Positions 1,310 to 37,966 of a stretch of 64,000 bases of DNA are shown here, piece after piece; the first letter of the stretch is position 1, and every line of letters starts with the position of its first letter. Where the stretch lies: positions 1,670,227-1,734,226 of the forward strand of contig CBDCPB010000004.1 in NCBI GenBank assembly GCA_965220125.1. Reading direction: 5' to 3'. Source of the DNA: Dehalococcoidia bacterium (lineage in GTDB: Bacteria; Chloroflexota; Dehalococcoidia; UBA2979). Under the pieces are notes generated by a model. It worked only from the letters and a program-made list of their open reading frames with translations. It was not told where the DNA came from and did not search any database. The position numbers were made by a program, and so were the translations under genes.

Positions 1310-1660
1310 CTAGACCAGTTCCAGTTCCGCCATCGCCGCGGCGTCGCCGCGACGGGGCCCCAGCTTGCGCACGCGCGTGTAGCCGCCGGGGCGGCTCGCG
1401 TACTGCGGCGCGATCTCGTCGAACAGGCGCGAGACCACCTTCGGGTCGTAGACGAAGGCGAGCGCCTGGCGGCGCGCGTGCAGCGTCCCGCGCTTGCCGA
1501 GCGTGACCATGCGGTCGACGAAGCGGCGCGCCTCCTTGGCGCGCGCCTCGGTGGTGGTCACGGAGCCGTGGCGGAGCACGTCCGTGGTGAGATTGCGCAG
1601 CATCGCCATCCGCTGCGCGGTCGGCATATCGAACTTGCGGCCATCGACTTTGTGACGCAT
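1310..1660 (-). CDS. rplQ: 50S ribosomal protein L17
   Basis: 116 aa; [10 protein letters not shown]...RQALAFVYD is the L17 signature; directly downstream of rpoA. Confidence 0.9.
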
Positions 1661-2775
1661 CAGTGATCGCCCAGACCCGGCGTGTCCTCGCCGGCTTCGC
1701 GCAGCGCCTGGATCAGCGCCGCGCCCAGTGACCCGACCTCGTCGCCGTCGTCCTCGGCCGCTGCGGCAGGCGCCGCCTCGGCTGCGGCAGGCGCTGCCTC
1801 GGCGGCGGGCTCGGCGACGGCGACCGGCTGCCGCGAGCGCGGCGCATCGCCGCGCGGCGCCGGGAAGCCGTTCGCGACGAGCTTGTCGCGCAGCTCCTCG
1901 TACGACTTCTCGCCGAAGTTGCGCAGCGCGAGCAGCTCCTCCTCGGAGCGCTCGAGGATGGAGCCGATGGTGATCAGGCCGGAGCGCTTGAGGCAGTTGT
2001 AGGCGCGCACGGACAGTTCGAGCGTCTCGATCGGCGTGTCGTGGCCGTCGATCGGCTGTGCAGTGTCGCTGCTGCGTTCGGCGGCGGCCTCGACGCGGCC
2101 GAGTTGCTGCAGTTGCAGCAGCTGATCGCGGATGATGCCCGCCGCCATCGCGATCGCGGTCTGGCCGTCGACGGTGCCGTCCGTCCAGACCTCCAGCTCG
2201 AGGCGGTCGAAGTTCGTGTCCTGCCCGACGCGCGTGTTGGAGACCTGGTAGTTGACCCGCTTCACCGGGGTGAAGAGCGCATCGACGGGGATCACGCCGA
2301 TCGGCAGGCCCTCGCTGACGGTCGCGGGCATGTAGCCGCGGCCCGTCTCGACGTTGAGGTCGATCACGAGCGACCCCTCCGCGTGGCCGAGCGTCGCGAG
2401 GTGCAGATCGGCGTTGGCGATCTCGTAGTCCGCGGTGGCGCGGATGTCGCCCGCCTTCACCTCGACCTCGCCGCCGACATCGAGGAAGAGCCGGGCGGGC
2501 CGGTCGGCGAAGGCGCGGAGCCGCACATCCTTGAGGTTGAGCAGCAGCTCCGTGACGTCCTCCTGCATGTGCGGCACCGTCGAGAACTCGTGCTCGACTC
2601 CGTCGATGCGGACGGAGGTGATGGCCGCACCCGGAAGCGAGGAGAGCAGCACGCGACGAAGGGAGTTACCGATCGTCGTGCCGAAGCCTGCCTCGAGGGG
2701 CTCCATCACGAGCTTCGCGTAGTCCATCTCCGCCTCTTCAATGCGGAGCGTCGGGGTCTGCAGTTCAGCCGCCAA
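1660..2775 (-). CDS. rpoA: DNA-directed RNA polymerase alpha subunit, with an Ala/Glu/Pro-rich C-terminal extension
   Basis: 371 aa; alpha N-terminal domain motifs ([28 protein letters not shown]) and C-terminal domain motifs ([15 protein letters not shown]). Confidence 0.92.
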
Positions 2776-4386: not shown

Positions 4387-4653
4387 CTAGCGGAAGCGGT
4401 ACGTGATCCGTCCCCGGGTGAGGTCGTAGGGGCTCAACTCCACGAGCACGCGGTCTCCGAGCAGGATGCGAATGTAGTGCATCTTCATCCGCCCCGAGAC
4501 GTGCGCGAGCACGTGGTGCCCGTTTGCCAGCTCAACATCGAACTGGGCGTTGGGGAGCGCGTCCTTGACGACGCCCTCGACCTCGATGACCTCCTTCTTC
4601 TTGCGCTGTGGCGCCTGGCGTTGAGACCGCTGGTTCTGGCGTCCCTTCGCCAT
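4387..4653 (-). CDS. infA: Translation initiation factor IF-1 with a basic N-terminal extension of about 15 aa
   Basis: 88 aa; the core ...[51 protein letters not shown] matches IF-1. Start codon overlaps the map stop (ATGA). Confidence 0.88.
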
Positions 4654-7981: not shown

Positions 7982-8164
7982 CTACTCGACCTCCTCGACC
8001 GTCACGAGGTGCCGGACCTTGTGCGCCATGCCCCGGATCGTGGGCGAGTCGTCGTGCTCAACGCTGTGGCGCAGGCGCTTCAGCCCGAGCGCCTTGATCG
8101 TCCTCTTCTGGCGTTCGGCGTAGCCGATCGCCGACTTCGTCCAGGTGATGCGCAGCTTCGTCAC
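7982..8164 (-). CDS. rpmD: 50S ribosomal protein L30
   Basis: 60 aa; [28 protein letters not shown]. Confidence 0.85.
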
Positions 8165-8739
8165 GAACCCGCCCCCACCAGCGCGCGGCGCGCCGAGACG
8201 ACGGCGCCCGGATGGCGCAGCGCGACCAGCCCTTCGACGGTCGCGCGCACGAGGTTGACGGGGTTGTTGGAGCCGAGCGACTTCGTAAGCACGTCGGTCA
8301 CGCCGGCCGCCTCGAGGACGGCGCGCACGCCGCCGCCGGCGATGATGCCGGTCCCGGGCGCGGCCGGGCGCATCACGACCCTGGAGGCCTTGAAGCGCGC
8401 GATCGTCTCGTGGGCGATCGTGCCCTGGCTGAGTGCGATCGAGGTCATCGAGCGGCGCGCGATCACTCCGCCCTTGCGGATCGCCTCGGGCACTTCGTTG
8501 GCGCGGCCCATGCCGAAGCCGACGCGGCCCTGGCCGTCGCCGACGACGACGATGGCGGTGAAGGAGAAGCGCCGCCCGCCCTTGACGACCTTGGCGACGC
8601 GGTTGATGTGCACGACCTTCTCGATGTAGTCGGGGCCCTCGGGCTCGCTGTCGCGGCGGCGGTCGCGCCGTCCGCGGTCGCCGCGCGGCCCGCGCCCGCC
8701 GCGGCCTCCGCGTCCGCCCCCTTGTTGCTGCTGGACCAT
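8161..8739 (-). CDS. rpsE: 30S ribosomal protein S5, with a Gly/Arg-rich N-terminus
   Basis: 192 aa; S5 dsRBD and C-terminal motifs ([28 protein letters not shown]). Confidence 0.9.
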
Positions 8740-10915: not shown

Positions 10916-11235
10916 CAGTCAATCGCCTCGTCGCAGGACTTGCAGTAGCGGACCTTGCGGCCGTCGCCGAGGACGCGGAAGCCGACGCGCGTCGCCGCGT
11001 CGCAGCCGCCGCAGACCAGCGCCACGTTCGAGACGTGCAGGGGCGCCTCCACCTCGAGGATCTCGGAGGGTGCGGTGGGGCTGCGCGAGCGGCGGTGCTT
11101 CTTGACCATGTTCGCGCCGGTGACGACCACGCGCTGCGCGTCGTGCAGCACCTGCCGCACCTCGCCGCGCCGTCCGCGGTCCTTGCCGGTCTGCACCTGC
11201 ACGGTATCGCGCCGCCGGATCTTCGAGGCCATCAC
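10915..11235 (-). CDS. rplX: 50S ribosomal protein L24, variant with four C-terminal Cys (putative zinc ribbon)
   Basis: 106 aa; the KOW region is L24-like and the C-terminus reads ...[14 protein letters not shown]...RYCKSCDE (CxxC...CxxC). Confidence 0.85.
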
Positions 11236-11603
11236 AGCACCTCCGGGGCGAGCGAGACGATGCGCATGAACTGCTTGTCGCGCAGCTCACGGGCGACCGG
11301 CCCGGAGATGCGCGTGCCGCGCGGGTTGCCGGCGCGGTCGGACAGCACCACGGCCGCGTTCTCGTCGAAGCGGATCGAGGAGCCGTCCGGGCGCTGGAAC
11401 GGCTTGGCGGTGCGCACGATCACGGCGAGCACGACTTCACCCTTGGGCACCGGGCTGTTCGGCTGTGCTTCCTTCACGGTGGCGACGATCACGTCGCCGA
11501 CGCGCGCGTAGCGCCGGCCGCTGCCGCCGAGCACGCGGATGCAGAGCAACTCGCGCGCACCCGAGTTGTCGGCGACCTTGACCCTGCTTTCCTGCTGGAT
11601 CAT
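11232..11603 (-). CDS. rplN: 50S ribosomal protein L14
   Basis: 123 aa; [27 protein letters not shown]. Confidence 0.92.
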
Positions 11604-12556
11604 TGCGTTGCGGGCTCCCTGGTGTCCTCGTCTGCGGCCCCATCGGCCTCAGCGTCCTCGCCTGCGGTCTCTTCAGCCTCAGCCTCCGCTGCCGGCTCTT
11701 CGGCCTCGGCCTCAGCTTCCGCTGCCGGCTCCTCGGTCTCAGCTTCCGCTGCCGGCTCTTCGGCCTCGGCTTCCGCTGCCGGCTCTTCGGCCTCGGCTTC
11801 CGCTGCCGGCTCTTCGGCCTCCGCCTCTGCTGCCGGCTCTTCGGCCTCGGCTTCCGCTGCCGGCTCTTCGGCCTCAGCGTCCTCGCCTGCGGGCTCTTCG
11901 GCCTCGGCCTCTGCTGCGGGCGCCTCTGCCTCCGCCTCTGCTGCGGGAGCCTCTGCCTCGGCCTCTGCTGCGGGCTCCTCGGCCTCCGCCTCCGCTGCGG
12001 GCTCTTCGGCCTCTGCCTCTGCTGCGGGCTCTTCGGCCTCGGCTTCCGCTGCGGGCTCCTCGGCCTCGGCCTCTGCTGCGGGCTCCTCGGCCTCGGCTTC
12101 CGCTGCGGGCGCCTCTGCCTCCGCCTCTGCTGCGGGAGCCTCTGCCTCGGCGGGCGACTCGGCGACCGTTTCGCCGGAGGCGTCCGCTGCTTCGTCCGCC
12201 TCGGCGGCGGCGCGGGCGGCGGTGCGCTGCACCTCGTCGACCAGCGCCTCGTCGATCGACTCGGGGGCGACCTCGGCGACCTCGCGCTCGGTGATGACCT
12301 CGACCAGCCGCCAGCGCTTGGTCTTGCTGATCGGCCGGCACTCCTCGATCACCACGAGGTCGCCGGTGCTGGCGCTGTTCTCCGGGTCGTGCACGGGGTA
12401 GCGCTTCGTGCGCCGGATCACCTTGCCGTAGAGGCGGTGCCGGGAGGCGGAGGAGACGGCGACGATCACGGTCTGATCGTTGACGCCGGAGACCACCACG
12501 CCCCTGCGCGTCTTGCGATTCACCCTGCGCTCGGCTGCCTGTTCGGCCTGGACCAC
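11600..12556 (-). CDS. rpsQ: 30S ribosomal protein S17 fused to an acidic [11 protein letters not shown] repeat tail of roughly 200 aa
   Basis: The N-terminal ~100 aa are the S17 OB fold ([21 protein letters not shown]...[13 protein letters not shown]). The rest is Ala/Glu/Pro repeats encoded by near-perfect 33-nt tandem units over 11640-12130. Confidence 0.85.
11640..12130 (-). repeat. In-frame tandem 33-nt repeats (about 14 units, near-perfect copies) encoding an (A/E/P)11 motif within the rpsQ 3' region
   Basis: Directly visible on the plus strand: ...ctcggcctcagcttccgctgccggctcttcggc... repeated over the interval. Confidence 0.9.
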
Positions 12557-12559
12557 GGC

Positions 12560-12997
12560 TTACTCCCGCTCCCCGTCCGCAGCGTCGTCTCCCGCGGCCT
12601 CGTCTGTCGTCTCGTCTGTCGCAGCGTCGTCGTCCGCCGTCTCGTCTGTCGTCTCGTCTGTCGTCTCGTCGTCCGCCGTCTCGTCTGTCGCAGCGTCGTC
12701 GTCCGCCGCCTCGTCGGCCGCGGCGTCGTCGTCCGCGGCCTCATCCGTCGTCTCGCTGCTCGCGAGGGCGTCCGCGTCGCCGGACCCGGCCAGCACGGCC
12801 AGGATGTCGCGCTCGCGCAGGAGCGTCCGGACGCGTGCGACGCGCCGGCGCGCCCGCCGTACCTGCGAGACATCGGCGAGCTGCCGCGTCGCCGCCTGGA
12901 AGCGCAGGTTGAACAGCGCGCGCTGGCTCTCGTCGAGCTCGCGTTCGAGCTCGTCCGAGGGCAGCGCCCGCAGATCGATGGTTTCCTGCGTGGTCAT
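12560..12997 (-). CDS. rpmC: 50S ribosomal protein L29 with an acidic (D/E/T/A) C-terminal tail of about 80 aa
   Basis: Internal ATG at 12997 overlaps the rplP stop (ATGA). [40 protein letters not shown] is the L29 core. The tail reads ...TDEAADDDAAADEAADDDAATDE.... Confidence 0.85.
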   Translation of the reverse strand: MTTQETIDLRALPSDELERELDESQRALFNLRFQAATRQLADVSQVRRARRRVARVRTLLRERDILAVLAGSGDADALASSETTDEAADDDAAADEAADDDAATDETADDETTDETTDETADDDAATDETTDEAAGDDAADGERE

Positions 12998-15852: not shown

Positions 15853-16533
15853 TCAGGCCTCCGCCGTCACGGGCTCGGGCGGCTCGGACGGGCGGCCCGA
15901 GGCGCGATCGCCGCCCCACAGCGCCTCGGCGCGGCGCACGGCGTCCACCGTCAGCAGCACCGAGTGGTGCGCCAGCAGGTCGGCCACGTTCAGCGTGTCG
16001 GCCGGCACCACGCGCACACCCGGCAGGTTGCGCGCCGAGAGGAACGCCGTGCGGTCCGGCGCGGCCGTCACGACCAGCACCGAGCGCTCGATACCGAGCG
16101 CCTGCACCAGATCCCGGGCCGCGCGCGTCGAGGGCGCCTCGATCGCCAGCTCGTCGACGACGTGCAGGCGCTCGTCGCGCGTGCGCGCGGAGAGCACGGA
16201 GCGCAGCGCCAGGCGGCGCATCCGCTTCGGGAGCCGCTGCGTGTAGGAGCGCGGCTTCGGACCGAAGGCGACGCCGCCGCCACGCCGGATCGGCGAGCGA
16301 TTGGAGCCCATGCGGGCCATGCCCAGCCCCTTCTGGCGCCGGATCTTCGCGGTCGACCCGCGGACCTCGCCGCGCGTCTTCGTGCTGTGGTTCCCGCCGC
16401 GGCGGGCGGCAAGCTGCGCGACCAGCGTCTGGTGCACGACCGGCTCGTTCGGCTCGATCCCGAACACGGCGTCGTCCACCTCGATCGGATCGAGCTCCTC
16501 GGCGGCGGCGTTGCGGACGCGGAGCTGCATCAC
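15853..16533 (-). CDS. rplD: 50S ribosomal protein L4
   Basis: 226 aa; L4 motifs ([34 protein letters not shown]). Confidence 0.9.
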
Positions 16534-17402
16534 TCGCGCTCCTCTTCGCTCGCCTCGGCGTCATCGGCCTCATCGGCCTCGGTCGCCTCGTCCTCGGTCG
16601 CGTCGGTCGCCTCGTCCTCGGTCGCGTCAGTGGCGTCGTCCTCGGTCGCCTCGGTCGCCTCGTCCTCGTCCTCGGCGGCCACGATCTCCTCGGGCTCGTC
16701 CGGCTCGGGCTCGTCGACTTCCATCACGGGCGGTGCGGGCAGCTCGGGCGGCTCGAAGCCGCTGCGCGGCGGCTTGCGGCCGGGCGTGACGGTGACGAGG
16801 CCCCGGTTGGGGCCGGGCACGGAGCCCTCGACGAACAGCAGGTTGCGGGCCGTGTCGGACTGGACGACGAGCAGGTTGAGGACGGACGTGTTGCGTGCGC
16901 CCATGTGCCCGGCCATCTTCTGGCCCTTCCAGACCTTGCCGGGCGTGGTGCCGGCGCCGATCGAGCCGGGCGCGCGGTGGCGGTCGGACTGGCCGTGCGT
17001 CTTCGGGCCGCCGTGGAAGCCCCAGCGCTTCACGCCACCGGCGAAGCCACGGCCCTTCGAGACGCCCGAGACGTCGACGTACTGGCCGGGCTCGAACTGG
17101 TCACAGGTCAGGACCTCGCCGGTCTCGTGGGCGGAAGGACTGTCGGCCGGGAACTCCTGCAGCAGGGACAGCGTCTCGTTCCCGAGGCCGGCCTTGCCGA
17201 GGTGGCCGCGCTGCGGCCGGTTGAGGCGCTTGCGGTTGCCGCCGTAGCCCACCTGGACGGCCTCGTAGCCGTCGCGCTCCACGGTGCGCAACTGGGTGAC
17301 GCGGTTGGGGCCGAGCTCGATCACGGTGACCGCGCGGACACGCCCGCCTCCGTCGTAGAGGCGCATCATTCCGAGCTTGCGGCCGATCATCCCGCGGATC
17401 AC
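16530..17402 (-). CDS. rplC: 50S ribosomal protein L3 with an acidic (E/D/A/T) C-terminal tail of about 80 aa
   Basis: The core is L3 (MIGRKLGMMRLYD..., FAGGVKRWGFHGGPKTHGQSDRHRAPGSIG). The tail reads ...[47 protein letters not shown]. Confidence 0.88.
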   Translation of the reverse strand: MIRGMIGRKLGMMRLYDGGGRVRAVTVIELGPNRVTQLRTVERDGYEAVQVGYGGNRKRLNRPQRGHLGKAGLGNETLSLLQEFPADSPSAHETGEVLTCDQFEPGQYVDVSGVSKGRGFAGGVKRWGFHGGPKTHGQSDRHRAPGSIGAGTTPGKVWKGQKMAGHMGARNTSVLNLLVVQSDTARNLLFVEGSVPGPNRGLVTVTPGRKPPRSGFEPPELPAPPVMEVDEPEPDEPEEIVAAEDEDEATEATEDDATDATEDEATDATEDEATEADEADDAEASEEERE

Positions 17403-17421: not shown

Positions 17422-17736
17422 TTACAGCTTGATCTCGATGTCCACGCCGGACGGCAGTTGCAGCCGCATCAGCGTGTCCACCGTGCGCGAGGTCGGTTCG
17501 AAGATGTCGATCAGCCGCTTGTGCGTGCGGATCTCGAACTGATCTCGCGAGTCCTTGTCGATGAACGGCGAACGGATCACCGTGTACTTGCGAATCCGCG
17601 TCGGGAGCGGCACCGGGCCCGCGACGGCGGCGCCGGTGCGCTCGGCAGTCTCCACGATCTGCTTCGCGGAGCGGTCCAGGACGCGATGGTCGTAGGACTT
17701 GAGCCGGATGCGTATCCGTTGTCTCGAAGCTACCAC
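17422..17736 (-). CDS. rpsJ: 30S ribosomal protein S10
   Basis: 104 aa; [30 protein letters not shown]. Confidence 0.92.
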
Positions 17737-28174: not shown

Positions 28175-29482
28175 CTAGCCCGCCATCGCGATCACGTTGC
28201 CGATCTCCTCGACCACGTCCGAGGCGCTGATCGTCTCGAGCGCCGTTTCCAGTTCCGCGCCCGCGGCGAGGTGCGTGGTGAGCACGATCTCCGCGGTCTG
28301 CGCGTCCTCGTCCGCCTCCACCTGGATGACGGAGGCGATGCTGATGCCGTGCGCCCCCAGCGCCTGTCCGATCTCGCCGAGCACGCCGGGGCGGTCCGCC
28401 ACGGTCATGCGCAGATAGCGCCTCGCGAGGTGCTCGCCCGCCGGGCGCACGCGCACGTTGCGGAGCGGCGGTGTCTCCAGCGGCGGCCGTCCGGCGACGA
28501 TGTCGCGTGCGACATCGAGCACGTCCGCCAGCACGGCGCTGGCCGTCGGACCGGGGCCCGCCCCGGGGCCCTCGAGGACGACGCGGCCGACGAGGTCGCC
28601 CTCGACCTGCACGGCGTTGAGCACGCCGTCCACCTTTGCCAACGGCTCATCGCGCGCGATCAGCGTCGGCCGGACGGAGGCGATCAGTGCGCCGTCGGCG
28701 AGCCGCCCGTTGGCGAGCAACTTGATCGCGTAGCCGAGGGCGTCGGCATGCCGCAGATCGGCGGCCGTCAGCTTCGTGATGCCCTCGCGCACGATGTCGT
28801 CCGGGCTCACGGAGACGTGGAAGGCGAGGCCGCAGAGGATTGCGAGCTTGAAGGCGGCGTCGATGCCCTCGACATCGGCGGTGGGATCGGGCTCCGCGTA
28901 GCCGAGGCGCTGCGCCTCGGCGAGGATGTCGGCGTAGTCCGCGCCCTCGCTGGCCATGCCGCTGAGCATGTAGTTGGTGGTGCCGTTGATGATCGCGGTC
29001 ACGGCGCTGATCTCGTTGGCCAGCAGGTCGCGGGAGAGCGGGCTGATGATCGGGATGCCGCCACCGACGGAGGCCTCGTAGAGCAGCCGCACGCCCTCTC
29101 CGGCGGCGGTCGCCAGCAGATCGCGTCCGTGCTTGGCGATCACCTCCTTGTTCGCCGTCACCACGTGGCGGCCGGAGCGCAACGCGCGCGCGATGTAGTC
29201 CGCGGCCGGATCCTCGCCGCCCATCAACTCGACGACGATGCGCACCTGCGGGTCGGCCAGCAGCGCATCGGGGTCCGTGGTCAGCCGCTCCGTCCCGAGG
29301 CCGTGGCGGGGCGCCGAGGCGTCACGCACGAGCGCGCCTCGCAGTTCGAGCGGACGCCCGACGACCGCGCGGTAGCGATCGCCGCCGCGATCAAGCGCGC
29401 CGATCACCCCGCCGCCGACATTGCCCGCGCCGAAGAGGGCGATGCCGATCGGGCCGCCCTCGCTCGCCTGCCGGTCGCTCAC
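28175..29482 (-). CDS. hom: Homoserine dehydrogenase
   Basis: GTG at 29482 (GTGA overlap with the upstream gene); IGIALFGAGNVGGG Rossmann motif; C-terminal ACT domain. Confidence 0.88.
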   Translation of the reverse strand: MSDRQASEGGPIGIALFGAGNVGGGVIGALDRGGDRYRAVVGRPLELRGALVRDASAPRHGLGTERLTTDPDALLADPQVRIVVELMGGEDPAADYIARALRSGRHVVTANKEVIAKHGRDLLATAAGEGVRLLYEASVGGGIPIISPLSRDLLANEISAVTAIINGTTNYMLSGMASEGADYADILAEAQRLGYAEPDPTADVEGIDAAFKLAILCGLAFHVSVSPDDIVREGITKLTAADLRHADALGYAIKLLANGRLADGALIASVRPTLIARDEPLAKVDGVLNAVQVEGDLVGRVVLEGPGAGPGPTASAVLADVLDVARDIVAGRPPLETPPLRNVRVRPAGEHLARRYLRMTVADRPGVLGEIGQALGAHGISIASVIQVEADEDAQTAEIVLTTHLAAGAELETALETISASDVVEEIGNVIAMAG

Positions 29483-30642
29483 GAACCGCCTCCCTGGCTG
29501 ATGCTGAACGGACTGCCGTCCCCACTCGAGAGACTGCTGACCACGCGGTCGAGAATCCAGCGCTCCTCGCCGTCGGACAAGTCGCGTTCCACGGCAACAA
29601 TAGCCCGTTGCGACAGGAGCCACTCGTCCCAGCGACCCGTGACCCGCGCCTCGATCTGCGCGGGTTCGAGCGGCCGGGCTTGCTCGCGCTCCACGACGAG
29701 GTAGACGTCGAAGAAGAGCTCCGTCTCGACCACGTCGCTGATCGCGCCGGTTTCGACGCCTTCGAGCGCGGCGCGGGCGATGTCGCTCAGCGATTCCAGC
29801 GGCAGCCAGCCGAGGTCACCGCCCTGCGCAGCGTACTCGGCCTCGGCGCTGCGCTCGGTGGCGAGTTCGGCGAAGTCGGCGCCCTCAAGCAGGAGCGCGC
29901 GCACGTCCTCGGCGCCGCCGCGGTCGGCGAGGCGGATGCGGGAGACGCGCAACTGGTCGGCCGTCTCGCCGATCTCCGCGCGGAACTGATCGAGCAGGCG
30001 ATCACGCAGGATCCCGGCCGCCACGACCCGGTCGTACTCGTCCTTCGGCAGATCGACGTGGCGCAGCCAGTCGGCCAGCGCGCTCGCGAAGCGAGCGGCT
30101 TCCTCCCTGGGATCCTCCTCGAGCGTGGCCGCGACCTCGTCGCCCTCGTCCGAACCGTTGTCATCGTCCGCCGCGTCGTCCGAGTCGCCACTGTCCGCGG
30201 TCTCCTCCTCGAGACCTTCGGGAGGAGCGAAGCCGAGGTGGGCGCGCAGCCACTGCGTGACGTCCTCGTCGGTCACCTCGCCGACGAGGGCAGGCGCGCG
30301 GGCGAGCACGATCGATTGCTCTTCGAGCACCGTCAGCGTCCCCGGCACGGCCTCGCCGATGCCGCCGGAGAGGTCGCCGAAGCGCAGCTCGTAGGTGGTG
30401 CGGCGAGCGACCTCGGCGGCCTCGTAGTCCGTCTCGCCGGCGCTGAGCACGTGCGCGCGCGGCGGCCGGTACTGCGTGGCGTAGAGGCCGGCGAGCACCA
30501 CCAGCGCGGCAACGCCGAGCACCACCGTGACGGCGATGATGGCGAACTGCTCGTTGCGGTGGGCGCGTTGATCGCGCTCCCGGCGCGAACTGATGCGCGC
30601 CGATCCGGATCTGCGATCAGCCTGGCCGCGGTCCCGGGGCAC
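29479..30642 (-). CDS. Membrane-anchored parvulin-type peptidyl-prolyl isomerase (PrsA/SurA-like foldase)
   Basis: N-terminal TM helix (FAIIAVTVVLGVAALVVLAGL) and a C-terminal PpiC motif GGDLGWLPLESL. Confidence 0.7.
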   Translation of the reverse strand: MPRDRGQADRRSGSARISSRRERDQRAHRNEQFAIIAVTVVLGVAALVVLAGLYATQYRPPRAHVLSAGETDYEAAEVARRTTYELRFGDLSGGIGEAVPGTLTVLEEQSIVLARAPALVGEVTDEDVTQWLRAHLGFAPPEGLEEETADSGDSDDAADDDNGSDEGDEVAATLEEDPREEAARFASALADWLRHVDLPKDEYDRVVAAGILRDRLLDQFRAEIGETADQLRVSRIRLADRGGAEDVRALLLEGADFAELATERSAEAEYAAQGGDLGWLPLESLSDIARAALEGVETGAISDVVETELFFDVYLVVEREQARPLEPAQIEARVTGRWDEWLLSQRAIVAVERDLSDGEERWILDRVVSSLSSGDGSPFSISQGGGS

Positions 30643-31602: not shown

Positions 31603-32157
31603 TCACTCCGCCGGAGCCGCGGCGGGCGCTTCCGCTGCCCCCGGCTCGGCGGCGGGCGCCTCTGCCGTCTCCGGCTCGGCGGCGGGCGCTTCGGCTGCCT
31701 CGGGCTCGGCGGCGGGCGCTTCGGCTGCCTCGGGCGCTTCCTCCACGGGCGGCCTCTCGTCGCGCGGTGGCGCCTCGTCGCGCGGTGGCGCCTCGTCGCG
31801 CGGCGGCGCCTGCCGCGACGTGGCGCGGCGCTGGTACATGACCTCTTCCTCCGGCGGGCCGTCGTAGCCGGGGACGAGGCCGCGGACCAGCAGGTGCCGC
31901 AGGATGTTCTCGTTGATGTGCAGCGCGCGCTCGAAGCCGGCGATGCGATCGCCCGGCATCGTGATGTGCGTGAGCACATAGGTGCCCTCGAAGTGGTGCT
32001 TGATCGGGTAGGCGAGACGGCGGCGGCCCCAGTTGTCCGTCATCAGGATCTCGCCGCCTGTGTCTTCGACCAGCCCCTGGACGCGCTCGATGGTGGCGTC
32101 GGCCTCCTCCACCATCAGGCGCGGGCTGATCACGTACATCAACTCGTACTCGTTCAA
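31603..32157 (-). CDS. rpsF: 30S ribosomal protein S6 with a Pro/Glu/Ala repeat C-terminal tail
   Basis: Core MNEYELMYVISPRL...GRRRLAYPIKHHFEGTYVL. The tail contains APPRDE x3 and AEAPAAEPE repeats. Confidence 0.88.
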   Translation of the reverse strand: MNEYELMYVISPRLMVEEADATIERVQGLVEDTGGEILMTDNWGRRRLAYPIKHHFEGTYVLTHITMPGDRIAGFERALHINENILRHLLVRGLVPGYDGPPEEEVMYQRRATSRQAPPRDEAPPRDEAPPRDERPPVEEAPEAAEAPAAEPEAAEAPAAEPETAEAPAAEPGAAEAPAAAPAE

Positions 32158-36219: not shown

Positions 36220-36555
36220 CTAGCCCAACTGGTTCAGGATCACACCGACGCCGATGCTGATCGCGGTCAGCACCAGGCCGAAGCCAGCCGCCATGCCCGC
36301 GCCGAGCTTGAGCAGCAGGCGCGGCTCAATCTGATCGACCTTGTGATCAAGCTGGTCGATCCGGTGGTCAAGTTGGTCGATCCGGTGGTCGAGCTTCCGC
36401 TCGAGGTCCGCGAGCGCAAGCGCCAGGTCTTCCTTCGTGACCAGATTCGAGGGCATCGCAGCCATGTGCGTCGCGAGGGCATCGGCCTGCTGCTCGTTGA
36501 ACCCTGCCGCGCGCAGGTCTTTGGAGATGCTGAGCGTGTCGGAAGCCATCGCCAT
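36220..36555 (-). CDS. DUF1640-like small protein, copy A: N-terminal FDTL-AG-QAEA-like motif, coiled coil with HRIDQLD-type 7-aa repeats, C-terminal TM helix
   Basis: MAMASDTLSISKDLRAAGFNEQQADALATHMAA...HRIDQLDHRIDQLDHKVDQIEPRLLLKLGAGMAAGFGLVLTAISIGVGVILNQLG. Start taken at the MAMAS ATG (36555), with a TATACT -10-like hexamer just upstream. The track ORF starts 9 codons earlier at a GTG. Confidence 0.7.
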   Translation of the reverse strand: MAMASDTLSISKDLRAAGFNEQQADALATHMAAMPSNLVTKEDLALALADLERKLDHRIDQLDHRIDQLDHKVDQIEPRLLLKLGAGMAAGFGLVLTAISIGVGVILNQLG

Positions 36556-36775
36556 GAGTATACGCCGCCGCCTCTGCCACACTTACGCGGGGGTTAGGGT
36601 AGCACAGTCCTGTCATACCATTACGCGCCGGTGCGAGCCTGATCAAGGAGACGGTCCCGGTCTGGAAGCGCGAGCAACGGCCTCGACGGGTCGGTCTGGC
36701 AGGAGGGCGTCGGTCTTCGCCCCACCGGAGCGGAGCGCCCCGCGGGCGCCCTGAGCGCCGGGAGCCCGGAGCCGG

Positions 36776-37153
36776 CTAGCCCAACTGGTTCAGGATCACG
36801 CCGACGCCGATGCTGATCGCGGTCAGCACCAGGCCGAAGCCCCCCACCATGCCGGCGCCCAGCTTGAGAAGCAGGCGCGGCTCAATCTGATCGACCTTGT
36901 GATCGAGCTGATCAACCTTGTGATCGAGCTGATCAACCTTGTGGTCCAGCTGATCAATTCTGTGGTCCAGCTGATCAATTCTGTGGCCAACCTTGAGCTC
37001 GAGTTCTGCGAGCCCAAGTGCCAGGTCTTCCCGTGAGGCCAGGTTTGCCGGCATGGCGGCCATGTGCGTGGCGAGCGCGTCCGCCTGCTGCTCGTTGAAG
37101 CCTGCCGCGCGCAGGTCTTTGGAGATGCTGAGCGTGTCGGAAGCCATCGCCAT
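36776..37153 (-). CDS. DUF1640-like small protein, copy B, with five 7-aa (21-nt) coiled-coil repeats
   Basis: Near-identical N-terminus to copy A; HRIDQLD x2 plus HKVDQLD x3; C-terminal TM helix. Confidence 0.7.
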   Translation of the reverse strand: MAMASDTLSISKDLRAAGFNEQQADALATHMAAMPANLASREDLALGLAELELKVGHRIDQLDHRIDQLDHKVDQLDHKVDQLDHKVDQIEPRLLLKLGAGMVGGFGLVLTAISIGVGVILNQLG

Positions 37154-37364
37154 GAGTATACGCCGCCGCCTCTGCCACACTTACGCGGGGGTTAGGGTAG
37201 CACAGTCCTGTCATACCATTACGCGCCGGTGCGAGCCTGATCAAGGAGACGGTCCCGGTCTGGAAGCGCGAGCAACGGCCTCGACGGGTCGGTCTGGCAG
37301 GAGGGCGTCGGTCTTCGCCCCACCGGAGCGGGGCGCCCCGCGGGCGCCCTGAGCGCCGAGCCCG

Positions 37365-37646
37365 TTAGCCGAGCTGGTGGAGGAGCACCGCTGTGGCTGT
37401 GCCCATCCCGGCAAGGATCAGTCCGACGGCAACCGCCAGGCCCGCACCAAGCCTCAGCAGCAGGCGCGACTCAACCTGATCGATCTTGTGGTTCAGTCGA
37501 GATACCTCCAGTGCGAGGTCTTCCTTCGTGACGAGATTCGTGGGCATCGCGGCCATGTGCGTGGCGAGCGCGTCGGCCTGCTGCTCGTTGAAGCCTGCCG
37601 CGCGCAGGTCTTTGGAGATGCTGAGCGTGTCCGAAGCCATCGCCAT
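37365..37646 (-). CDS. DUF1640-like small protein, copy C, with no internal 7-aa repeats and a divergent TM helix
   Basis: MAMASDTLSISKDLRAAGFNEQQADALATHMAAMPTNLVTKEDLALEVSRLNHKIDQVESRLLLRLGAGLAVAVGLILAGMGTATAVLLHQLG. Only 6 nt separate it from copy D. Confidence 0.65.
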   Translation of the reverse strand: MAMASDTLSISKDLRAAGFNEQQADALATHMAAMPTNLVTKEDLALEVSRLNHKIDQVESRLLLRLGAGLAVAVGLILAGMGTATAVLLHQLG

Positions 37647-37652
37647 AGAGCG

Positions 37653-37901
37653 TCAGCCCAGTTGGTTCAGAAGGATTGCCGTGACAATGCCCATCCCGGC
37701 GAAGAGTAGACCCACGGCAACCGCGAGACCTGCGCCCATCCTCAACTCAAGCCGCGATACCTCCAGTGCCAGGTCTTCTTTCGTCACGAGGTTCGCGGGC
37801 ACGGCAGCCATGTGCGTCGCGAGCGCATCGGCCTGCTGCTCGTTGAAGCCTGCCGCCCGCAGGTCTTTGGAGATGCTGAGCGTGTCCGAAGCCATCGCCA
37901 T
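37653..37901 (-). CDS. DUF1640-like small protein, copy D, shortest form
   Basis: MAMASDTLSISKDLRAAGFNEQQADALATHMAAVPANLVTKEDLALEVSRLELRMGAGLAVAVGLLFAGMGIVTAILLNQLG. Confidence 0.65.
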   Translation of the reverse strand: MAMASDTLSISKDLRAAGFNEQQADALATHMAAVPANLVTKEDLALEVSRLELRMGAGLAVAVGLLFAGMGIVTAILLNQLG

Positions 37902-37966
37902 GAGTATAGGCCGCCGCCGCTGCCACGCGTCCGAGGCGCATACCATACCACAGTCATGTCATACGA

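Follow-up and report, generated by a model that had tools for sequence, protein, structure and literature searches.

A ribosomal protein S17 with a long, strain-variable acidic repeat tail in a Dehalococcoidia bacterium

The rpsQ gene of a Dehalococcoidia bacterium, analyzed here within a 64,000-nt stretch of contig CBDCPB010000004.1 (the window; overall GC content 70.5%), encodes a genuine ribosomal protein uS17 (S17) that is nearly four times the usual length and acidic overall. The OB-fold domain of this protein is followed by a conserved linker with a predicted helix and by a variable acidic tail that is encoded by a coding minisatellite, an architecture of which we are virtually certain. 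On balance, we lean towards an interpretation in which this tail acts as a solvent-exposed polyanionic brush, with shielding of S17 itself as the preferred role. Few proteins are as conserved or as basic as ribosomal proteins, their extensions normally bind rRNA, and S17 is a primary binder of 16S rRNA. The S17 tail is best described as a lineage-specific ribosomal-protein extension that is unusual in being acidic rather than basic, in its great length and in consisting of a strain-variable repeat within an essential gene.

Positions given below are those of the window, and features lie on the minus strand unless stated otherwise. Domains were assigned with Pfam models, repeats with Tandem Repeats Finder and the fold with AlphaFold2 using a 44-sequence alignment. 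The rpsQ open reading frame (ORF; 11600..12556, minus strand) runs from a GTG start at 12556 to a TGA stop at 11600-11602 and comprises 318 codons without an internal stop or frameshift. A first-pass annotation of this DNA had proposed that the OB fold of S17 is fused in frame to an acidic tail of about 200 residues, while allowing for a missed stop or frameshift between the two; the single uninterrupted ORF of 318 amino acids (aa), with its 198-aa tail, agrees with the proposal and contains neither. Residues 19-86 match the Pfam family Ribosomal_S17 (PF00366) over the whole model (positions 1-68 of 68, E = 2.9e-27), with a score of 95 bits against a family cut-off of 25.9. The OB-fold domain (aa 16-88; 12293..12511), the part that anchors S17 to 16S rRNA, is delimited by this match and by five strands predicted at residues 16-24, 29-39, 46-56, 67-73 and 81-88, with predicted local distance difference test (pLDDT) values of 80-94. 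Further, 125 S17 sequences in the PDB match the protein, and, a few organellar forms excepted, their alignments end at about residue 90. Canonical uS17, exemplified by the 84-aa RpsQ of E. coli, has the same OB fold, a full PF00366 match and the same position between rpmC and rplN, and canonical PDB chains align to residues ~4-92 of the protein studied here, whereas the window S17 has 228 further residues.

As the first-pass annotation had stated, the gene belongs to the S10 operon: it lies between rpmC upstream and rplN downstream, in the conserved S10/spc order that is also found in loci L048-L059, and the window holds the complete S10-spc-alpha cluster on the minus strand, from S10 (17422-17736) to L17 (1310-1660). 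The downstream neighbor rplN (uL14; 11232..11603) encodes 123 aa and matches PF00238 with E = 3.7e-51. Based on the Pfam match, the fold prediction and the operon position, the assignment of the window protein as a genuine uS17 is near-certain. Its exact sequence has no identical entry in the protein collection that was searched, and among the matches listed for related metagenome-assembled genomes each genome contributed a single S17 locus. Antisense ORFs of 594, 259 and 251 aa also span the array, but open frames of this kind are common in DNA with 70% GC and these ORFs were discarded; the acidic frame was taken as the real one because it alone joins the Pfam domain and is conserved in relatives.

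Between the OB fold and the tail lies a linker (aa 89-126; 12179..12292) that was defined from alignment columns and includes a predicted helix at residues 103-126 (pLDDT ~82). Positions R91, V93, A94, V96-P98, Q110, R111, A113-A116 and E119 are invariant or near-invariant among 44 Chloroflexota S17s, and the linker motif was found in 119 of 121 S17 sequences. No solved structure among the 125 PDB matches covers this region.

The remainder of the protein is an acidic low-complexity tail (aa 127-318; 11603..12178), recognized by its composition and predicted to be disordered. Counted from residue 121, the final 198 aa comprise 83 Ala, 75 Glu, 19 Pro and 7 Asp with a single Arg and no Lys, giving a net charge of -81, and the calculated isoelectric point is 4.1 for the whole S17 as compared with 10.6 for the OB domain. 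Nowhere in the tail do more than two acidic residues stand in a row. From about residue 135 onward AlphaFold2 assigns no secondary structure, most residues having pLDDT <50 and block means being 41-51, so that the tail is predicted to be an intrinsically disordered polyanion. A rough polymer estimate for 198 residues gives an end-to-end size of ~13-22 nm, comparable to that of the ribosome. Because its single Arg lies near the end and Lys is absent, tryptic proteomics cannot detect the tail.

The tail is encoded by a 27-nt coding tandem array (11662..12151) with the unit GCAGCGGAGGCCGAGGCCGAAGAGCCC, which specifies the nonapeptide AAEAEAEEP. In the assembly sequence, Tandem Repeats Finder reports a period of 27, 17.8 copies, 85% matches and a score of 549, and manual parsing gives 16-19 units; the array is far beyond chance. 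The first-pass annotation had counted ~14 near-perfect repeats of 33 nt, or 11 aa, and both unit and fidelity need correction, as the ~18 copies are only ~85% alike and most of their differences are synonymous. Self-comparison of the array shows matches every 27 nt except for a single step of 30 nt, where a 3-nt insertion shifts the register mid-array. Pairs of units differ at 0-7 of 27 bases when the most divergent unit, GEDAEAEEP (up to 11), is left out, and the longest exact repeat inside the array is 53 nt. Among 16 cleanly parsed units, 359 codon differences were synonymous and 114 non-synonymous. By our own calculation, only ~23% of random single-base changes in Ala, Glu and Pro codons are expected to be synonymous under neutrality, as compared with the 76% observed, which points to constraint on the encoded amino acids. 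Codon choice in the tail also departs from that of the operon: GCA accounts for 32 of 79 tail Ala codons vs. 4 of 134 in six neighboring genes (40% vs. 3%) and GAA for 17 of 72 tail Glu codons vs. 10 of 103 (24% vs. 10%), and in the biased region (11603-12154, minus strand) CCC is favored over CCG for Pro. Within the array, Pro is encoded by CCC in the first half and by CCG in the second, a split that suggests two sub-arrays.

Relatives were collected by searching a database clustered at 90% identity with S17 residues 1-135, and the best 120 of 1177 matches were analyzed. These are 125-237 aa long, and the named ones are all annotated as Chloroflexi or Dehalococcoidia. In 119 sequences (118 database matches plus the window S17) the region after the linker is 10-199 aa long (median 64) and contains 33.6% Asp/Glu and 2.1% Lys/Arg. 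The tails of distant members cannot be aligned with each other, and since all of them nevertheless share the acidic composition, the tail is a trait of the clade that is conserved in composition and not in sequence. The closest genomes are Dehalococcoidia metagenome-assembled genomes whose S17s of 297 (L001), 254 (L003), 228 (L004) and 288 aa (L011) share one family of 9-aa units. We had considered the window S17 a length outlier in view of the 237-aa ceiling among the database matches, and dropped this idea as loci on long contigs, retrieved by their L14 protein, have S17s of 299-360 aa, longer forms than that of the window among them. The ceiling probably reflects short-read assemblies that truncate or break in the array, and the S17 of L005 indeed runs off the contig end within it. 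All nine intact long S17s and about half of the long L29s in the gene tables of L050-L059 lack a precomputed Pfam match, whereas a direct Pfam scan readily detects the domains in the window proteins; automated annotation may therefore miss the long forms.

An exact match to the window L14 protein retrieved 11 contigs, of which 10 loci (L050-L059) were compared, with flank identity measured over the 2.4 kb downstream of rpsQ (L14 to S8). Four loci (L050, L051, L052 and L057) are 99.0-99.5% identical to the window in their flanks and have the identical L14 protein. Intact S17s of this one species are 302 (L050), 353 (L051), 351 (L057) and 318 aa (window) long, as the first-pass annotation had anticipated in suggesting that repeat length could vary between strains, and the corresponding L29 proteins have 156 (L050), 170 (L051), 176 (L052), 156 (L057) and 145 aa (window). 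In L057 the array holds 23.1 copies of the 27-nt unit (91% match) vs. 17.8 in the window. The array thus has a unit that is a multiple of three, an uninterrupted frame and a copy number that differs between close genomes, and it behaves as a variable-number tandem repeat (VNTR) between strains of one species.

Six more loci, ~95% identical in the flanks and again with an identical L14 protein, represent a sister species. One of them, L059, retains the 9-aa unit in an S17 of 299 aa, and L053, L054, L055 and L058 carry another acidic unit of 66 nt, or 22 aa, in S17s of 312-360 aa. Two contigs from one sample (L053 and L058) encode S17s of equal length that are one residue apart, together with L29s of 197 and 179 aa. 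The dominant unit variant differs from genome to genome, and a nearest-neighbor test for concerted evolution gave a mixed result, clear in L003, L011 and L002 and weak in the window and L004. Comparison of the assembled loci shows an array that gains and loses copies and can even give way to different acidic units, while its frame, acidity and near-absence of Lys/Arg are always kept. Of the two histories that the first-pass annotation had offered for the array, recent expansion or ongoing homogenization, continuing turnover accords with the genome-specific units and with the 66-nt replacement; a purely very recent expansion does not accord with units that are only ~85% alike.

Frameshifts inside the S17 array occur in three assemblies (L002 3900-4060, L052 2044-3004 and L056 2016-3004), where they yield basic out-of-frame stretches such as LRTRRRLPRRPPRPPR. 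All three copies return to the acidic frame further on and finish with the conserved tip and the overlap with L14. The L056 contig is labelled with 4x coverage, and its frameshift is likely a consensus error; the three frameshifts together are probably consensus errors of low-coverage assemblies, although true truncation may be involved.

S17 is not the only ribosomal protein of the window to be extended in this way. A six-frame scan for segments that span 30 aa or more, contain 40% or more Asp/Glu and have no more than one Lys/Arg returned only six: one of 182 aa in the S17 tail, one of 75 aa in each of the L29 and L3 tails, and the others in an insert of a PpiC-type rotamase, in a normal segment of EF-Tu and in one antisense frame. 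uL29 is usually ~65 aa and uL3 ~210 aa long. In the window, rpmC (uL29; 12560..12997) encodes 145 aa with a PF00831 match over aa 7-62, followed by a 77-aa acidic tail (12563-12787) of Asp/Thr/Ala repeats resembling TDEAADDDAA, with a net charge of -33. Among the loci with an identical L14 protein uL29 has 144-197 aa, and in the slightly more distant L003, L004 and L011 it ends in an acidic stub of only ~20 aa. The rplC gene (uL3; 16530..17402; 290 aa, PF00297) likewise ends in a 77-aa acidic tail (16533-16757), here of 8-aa repeats resembling ATEDEATD with a net charge of -36, and this tail is also found in the uL3 of L048, which has 291 aa, and in that of L049 (277 aa), a more distant relative. 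Outside the cluster, rpsF (bS6; 31603..32157; 184 aa, PF01250 over aa 3-92) has a Pro/Ala/Glu tail of ~84 aa with a net charge of -15, whose repeats (31619-31826) read APPRDE three times and then EAAEAPAAEP four times. Among the 120 bS6 relatives listed, nearly all have 139-195 aa, with one 73-aa partial match as the exception, and the S6 extension is therefore a trait of the clade as well. With all four tails in place, each ribosome would carry about -165 additional charges and ~440 additional residues. We did not adopt the idea that the S6 and S17 tails descend from the same DNA, as their likeness is expected from the same amino acids in GC-rich codons.

A search with the tail alone, in which 8000 candidates were scored and which is thus suggestive and not exhaustive, gave 12 matches, all of them ribosomal proteins: eight S17s of the clade, an S16, an L10, an S1 and a divergent S17. 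In the metagenome proteins bS16 (P0121, 260 aa), uL10 (P0122, 282 aa) and bS1 (P0123) nearly the same 9-aa unit stands at the C-terminus, and in the divergent metagenome S17 (P0124) nearly the same acidic repeat stands at the N-terminus. P0121-P0124 thus resemble the window S17 in bearing near-identical units at the termini of ribosomal proteins, but do so in other proteins and, in P0124, at the opposite end.

The PpiC-type rotamase (29479-30642, minus strand) carries its 48-aa acidic insert, EEETADSGDSDDAADDDNGSDEGDE, at 30094-30237, the only such insert in a non-ribosomal protein of the window. RpoA (1660-2775, minus strand; 371 aa) has an Ala/Pro/Glu-rich insert after its C-terminal domain, with a repeat at 1760-1808 and a conserved end segment next to it, and the RpoA of L048 shows the same insert and terminal segment. 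Two further proteins are extended at the N-terminus, uS5 (8161-8739, minus strand) by a Gly/Arg-rich segment and IF1 (4387-4653, minus strand) by a basic one; both are basic, unlike the acidic C-terminal tails. Elsewhere in the window, at 36220-37946 (minus strand), four tandem paralogous ORFs of 93-134 aa all start with MAMASDTLSISKDLRAAGFNEQQADALATHM and have hydrophobic, probably membrane-spanning ends, and 21-nt repeats occur inside these small ORFs at 36326-36395 and 36887-36978.

The interpretation that we favor for these observations begins with an array whose length would change by replication slippage or unequal recombination and whose product selection would keep acidic. In textbook 30S structures the S17 C-terminus lies on the solvent side of the 30S body. 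A tail with a net charge of -81 could hardly lie on rRNA and would project from that side, and because its charge bars contact with rRNA and the C-terminus faces the solvent, it presumably extends into the cytoplasm. There it would form an electrostatic and entropic brush, and the tails of uL29, uL3 and bS6 would behave in a similar way. S17 and L3 are early or initiator proteins of assembly. Tethered to such a protein, the polyanion may keep the basic, RNA-sticky S17 soluble and away from wrong RNAs until it is displaced by 16S/23S rRNA, and after assembly the brush may prevent ribosomes from adhering to one another and to further polyanions. What matters would then be composition and rough length, and not exact sequence. 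The last tail codons are constrained, as they hold the ATGA overlap described below and the ribosome-binding site of rplN. As to the function itself, electrostatic self-shielding is a tentative assignment that we regard as possible and no stronger than that.

Several points weigh against the brush interpretation. S17 length varies by ~20% between conspecific strains and the long L29 repeat tail is absent from the close relatives L003, L004 and L011, and therefore no precise length is required. A functionless but harmless tail would also be expected to face purifying selection against basic and hydrophobic residues, and the added charge amounts to a mere few percent of the phosphate charge of rRNA. 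The solvent-side position of the C-terminus is taken from textbook 30S structures of other S17s. Lastly, the frameshifts in L002, L052 and L056, if real, would mean that truncation is tolerated.

The most serious alternative is that the tail is tolerated junk: a slippage-prone, GC-rich minisatellite at a permissive, solvent-exposed C-terminus, where selection only removes harmful variants, be they basic, hydrophobic or frameshifted, and keeps the rplN ribosome-binding site. We doubt this explanation without considering it far-fetched. It accounts readily for the free length variation between conspecific strains (S17 302-353 aa, L29 144-176 aa), the wholesale swap of a 27-nt for a 66-nt unit, the loss of sequence conservation outside a tip that nucleotide-level constraints explain, and the missing long L29 tail in close relatives. 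Weak selection due to a small effective population size is also plausible in this lineage. The SB066x-series bins are listed among sponge-associated symbionts (PMC7883664), and since L005 and L007 belong to this series, the lineage is apparently at least partly sponge-associated. Junk would not, however, be expected to persist in all 119 sequences examined as an acidic tail that never falls below 10 aa and has a median of 64 aa, nor as a tail of ~170 aa or longer in every intact S17 of the near subclade in the face of deletion bias and the cost of an abundant protein. The strong synonymous excess among the units argues against it as well, and so do the like tails that four ribosomal proteins have in the window and that S16, L10 and S1 have elsewhere.

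A more ambitious proposal takes the hypervariable polyanionic tails of uS17, uL29, uL3 and bS6, and maybe those of S16, L10 and S1, as an encoded set with a selected role, which on present evidence we find rather improbable. The tails could then chaperone, from within the same chain, the very basic proteins that bind early in assembly; they could form a charge brush by which the spacing, solubility or cation binding of ribosomes is controlled; or they could render translation of the coupled genes downstream Mg2+-sensitive.

Conservation within the tail is confined to its extreme C-terminus, with endings such as ...EEKTEESAAQ, ...DEERAEP and ...AEQKAE, and 65 of the 158 Lys/Arg residues in 108 tails are found at positions -3 and -4 from the C-terminus. 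Both features would suit a flexible tether that presents a C-terminal peptide to a partner, much as the P proteins of the stalk do with their acidic tails and SSB does with its acidic tip. The DNA offers another account of the tip. The stop codon of rpsQ (TGA) and the start codon of rplN (ATG) overlap in ATGA (11600..11603), and a Shine-Dalgarno (SD)-like element for rplN, AGGGAG (11615..11620), is contained in the last S17 codons (T-R-E), where the AGG codon for the only Arg of the tail forms part of it. An ATGA or GTGA overlap is present in 9 of 10 relatives checked, with the exception of L049, in which the ATG lies 3 nt past the stop, and most relatives have an SD-like GGGAG, GAGGAG or GGAG 10-14 nt upstream of the L14 start, inside the last S17 codons. 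The tips of the other tails behave alike: the L29 tail ends in GERE, whose codons give GGGAG six bases before the S17 start, and the L3 tail ends in EEERE, whose codons give GAGGAG before the start of L4 (rplD). Because the S17 tip coincides with the SD and start overlap of rplN, and the L29 and L3 tips likewise encode the SD of the next gene, the tail tips appear to be constrained at least partly at the nucleotide level. We therefore downgraded the tip as a peptide motif on a tether; the tip of the window S17, moreover, differs from that of most relatives, and we know of no binding partner for it. Such a tether seems to us very unlikely.

The overlap may allow translational coupling of rpsQ and rplN, and as a consequence of it ribosomes normally translate the whole tail to reach rplN. 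This dependence of rplN expression on reading through the tail raises the possibility that the array acts on translation, either by nascent-chain destabilization through Glu and Pro or as an mRNA dense in SD-like GAGG/GGAG that tunes rplN, for example in response to Mg2+. Negatively charged stretches with intermittent prolines destabilize translating E. coli ribosomes, but this effect is reported to stay mostly hidden when the tunnel is already occupied by a long nascent chain (10.1101/2021.02.02.429294), and the S17 tail follows ~130 residues that would do so and never has more than two acidic residues in a row. GAGG occurs 7.0 times per 100 nt in the tail vs. 1.2 in the operon, and the codon usage of the tail is unusual, as seen for GCA; yet any Glu-Ala sequence written in GC-rich codons will inevitably contain GAGG, an SD of its own serves rplN, and free copy-number variation fits a tuned attenuator poorly. 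A translational role for the array is thus extremely unlikely in our estimation. Finally, an artefact of assembly or annotation (a repeat joined wrongly, a frameshift overlooked or a distinct gene downstream), to which the frameshifted copies, the breakage of short-read contigs in the array as in L005 and the database lengths ending at 237 aa might point and which the first-pass annotation had also entertained, can practically be dismissed as far as the existence of the tail is concerned, given an uninterrupted ORF in the window, no internal exact repeat >53 nt, the return of the acidic frame to the conserved tip even in frameshifted copies, and the same architecture in >15 independent assemblies with a tailed S17, including Mb-scale contigs up to a circular one of 3.48 Mb.

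Extensions of uS17 in Thermus and mycobacteria are basic or structured and contact the ribosome. The C-terminal extension in Thermus thermophilus (chains of 104-105 aa) and the N-terminal one in mycobacteria (135 aa in 5v93_q, with the OB fold at 52-132) indicate that the termini of the protein tolerate extension; these additions measure ~20-50 aa, however, as compared with the ~230 aa of acidic, repetitive, predicted disordered and strain-variable sequence found here. A further parallel is offered by the stalk proteins (the hinge of bL12 and the tails of archaeal and eukaryotic P1/P2), which like S17 combine an anchored domain, a flexible Ala/Glu/Pro segment and a conserved end. At the end of the stalk tails stands a functional domain or peptide for the recruitment of GTPases, whereas the ribosome-binding site of rplN gives a better explanation of the S17 tip, and S17 lies far from the factor-binding site.

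Bacterial coding VNTRs resemble the S17 array in being in-frame minisatellites with strain-variable copy number and genome-specific units attributable to concerted evolution. They typically reside in surface or contingency genes, in contrast to an array in an essential cytoplasmic ribosomal gene, and the S17 array would not provide on/off switching, because the length of its unit is a multiple of three. Among known modifications of the ribosome, the enzyme RimK adds a few glutamates post-translationally to the C-terminus of bS6, as it does in E. coli, and in Pseudomonas the length of this poly-glutamate tail is reported to change the proteome (PMC4741518, PMC7343187), which indicates that acidic tails on ribosomal proteins can matter. 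The RimK product resembles the S17 tail as an acidic C-terminus on a solvent-side protein of the small subunit, but it is made after translation, whereas the S17 tail is encoded by the gene, 20-50 times longer and rich in Ala, Glu and Pro, and so is not of the RimK type. No rimK was seen in the 64-kb window. In the literature, the coverage of which was incomplete so that only absence of evidence can be claimed, we found no account of acidic repeat tails on S17 or on ribosomal proteins of Chloroflexota; a match in PMC7203096 had no bearing on the subject.

For practical purposes, short-read assemblies truncate or break in tailed ribosomal genes, and the lengths of rpsQ and rpmC are a possible strain marker in these symbionts. 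If the tails are neutral, they would provide a natural gauge of the load of disordered polyanion that a ribosome tolerates. If they are functional, they would represent an unstudied way to alter the surface or the assembly of the ribosome, and should the tails prove to be a set with a selected role, they would constitute a new mode of bacterial ribosome modification, with a strain-variable repeat inside core translation genes.

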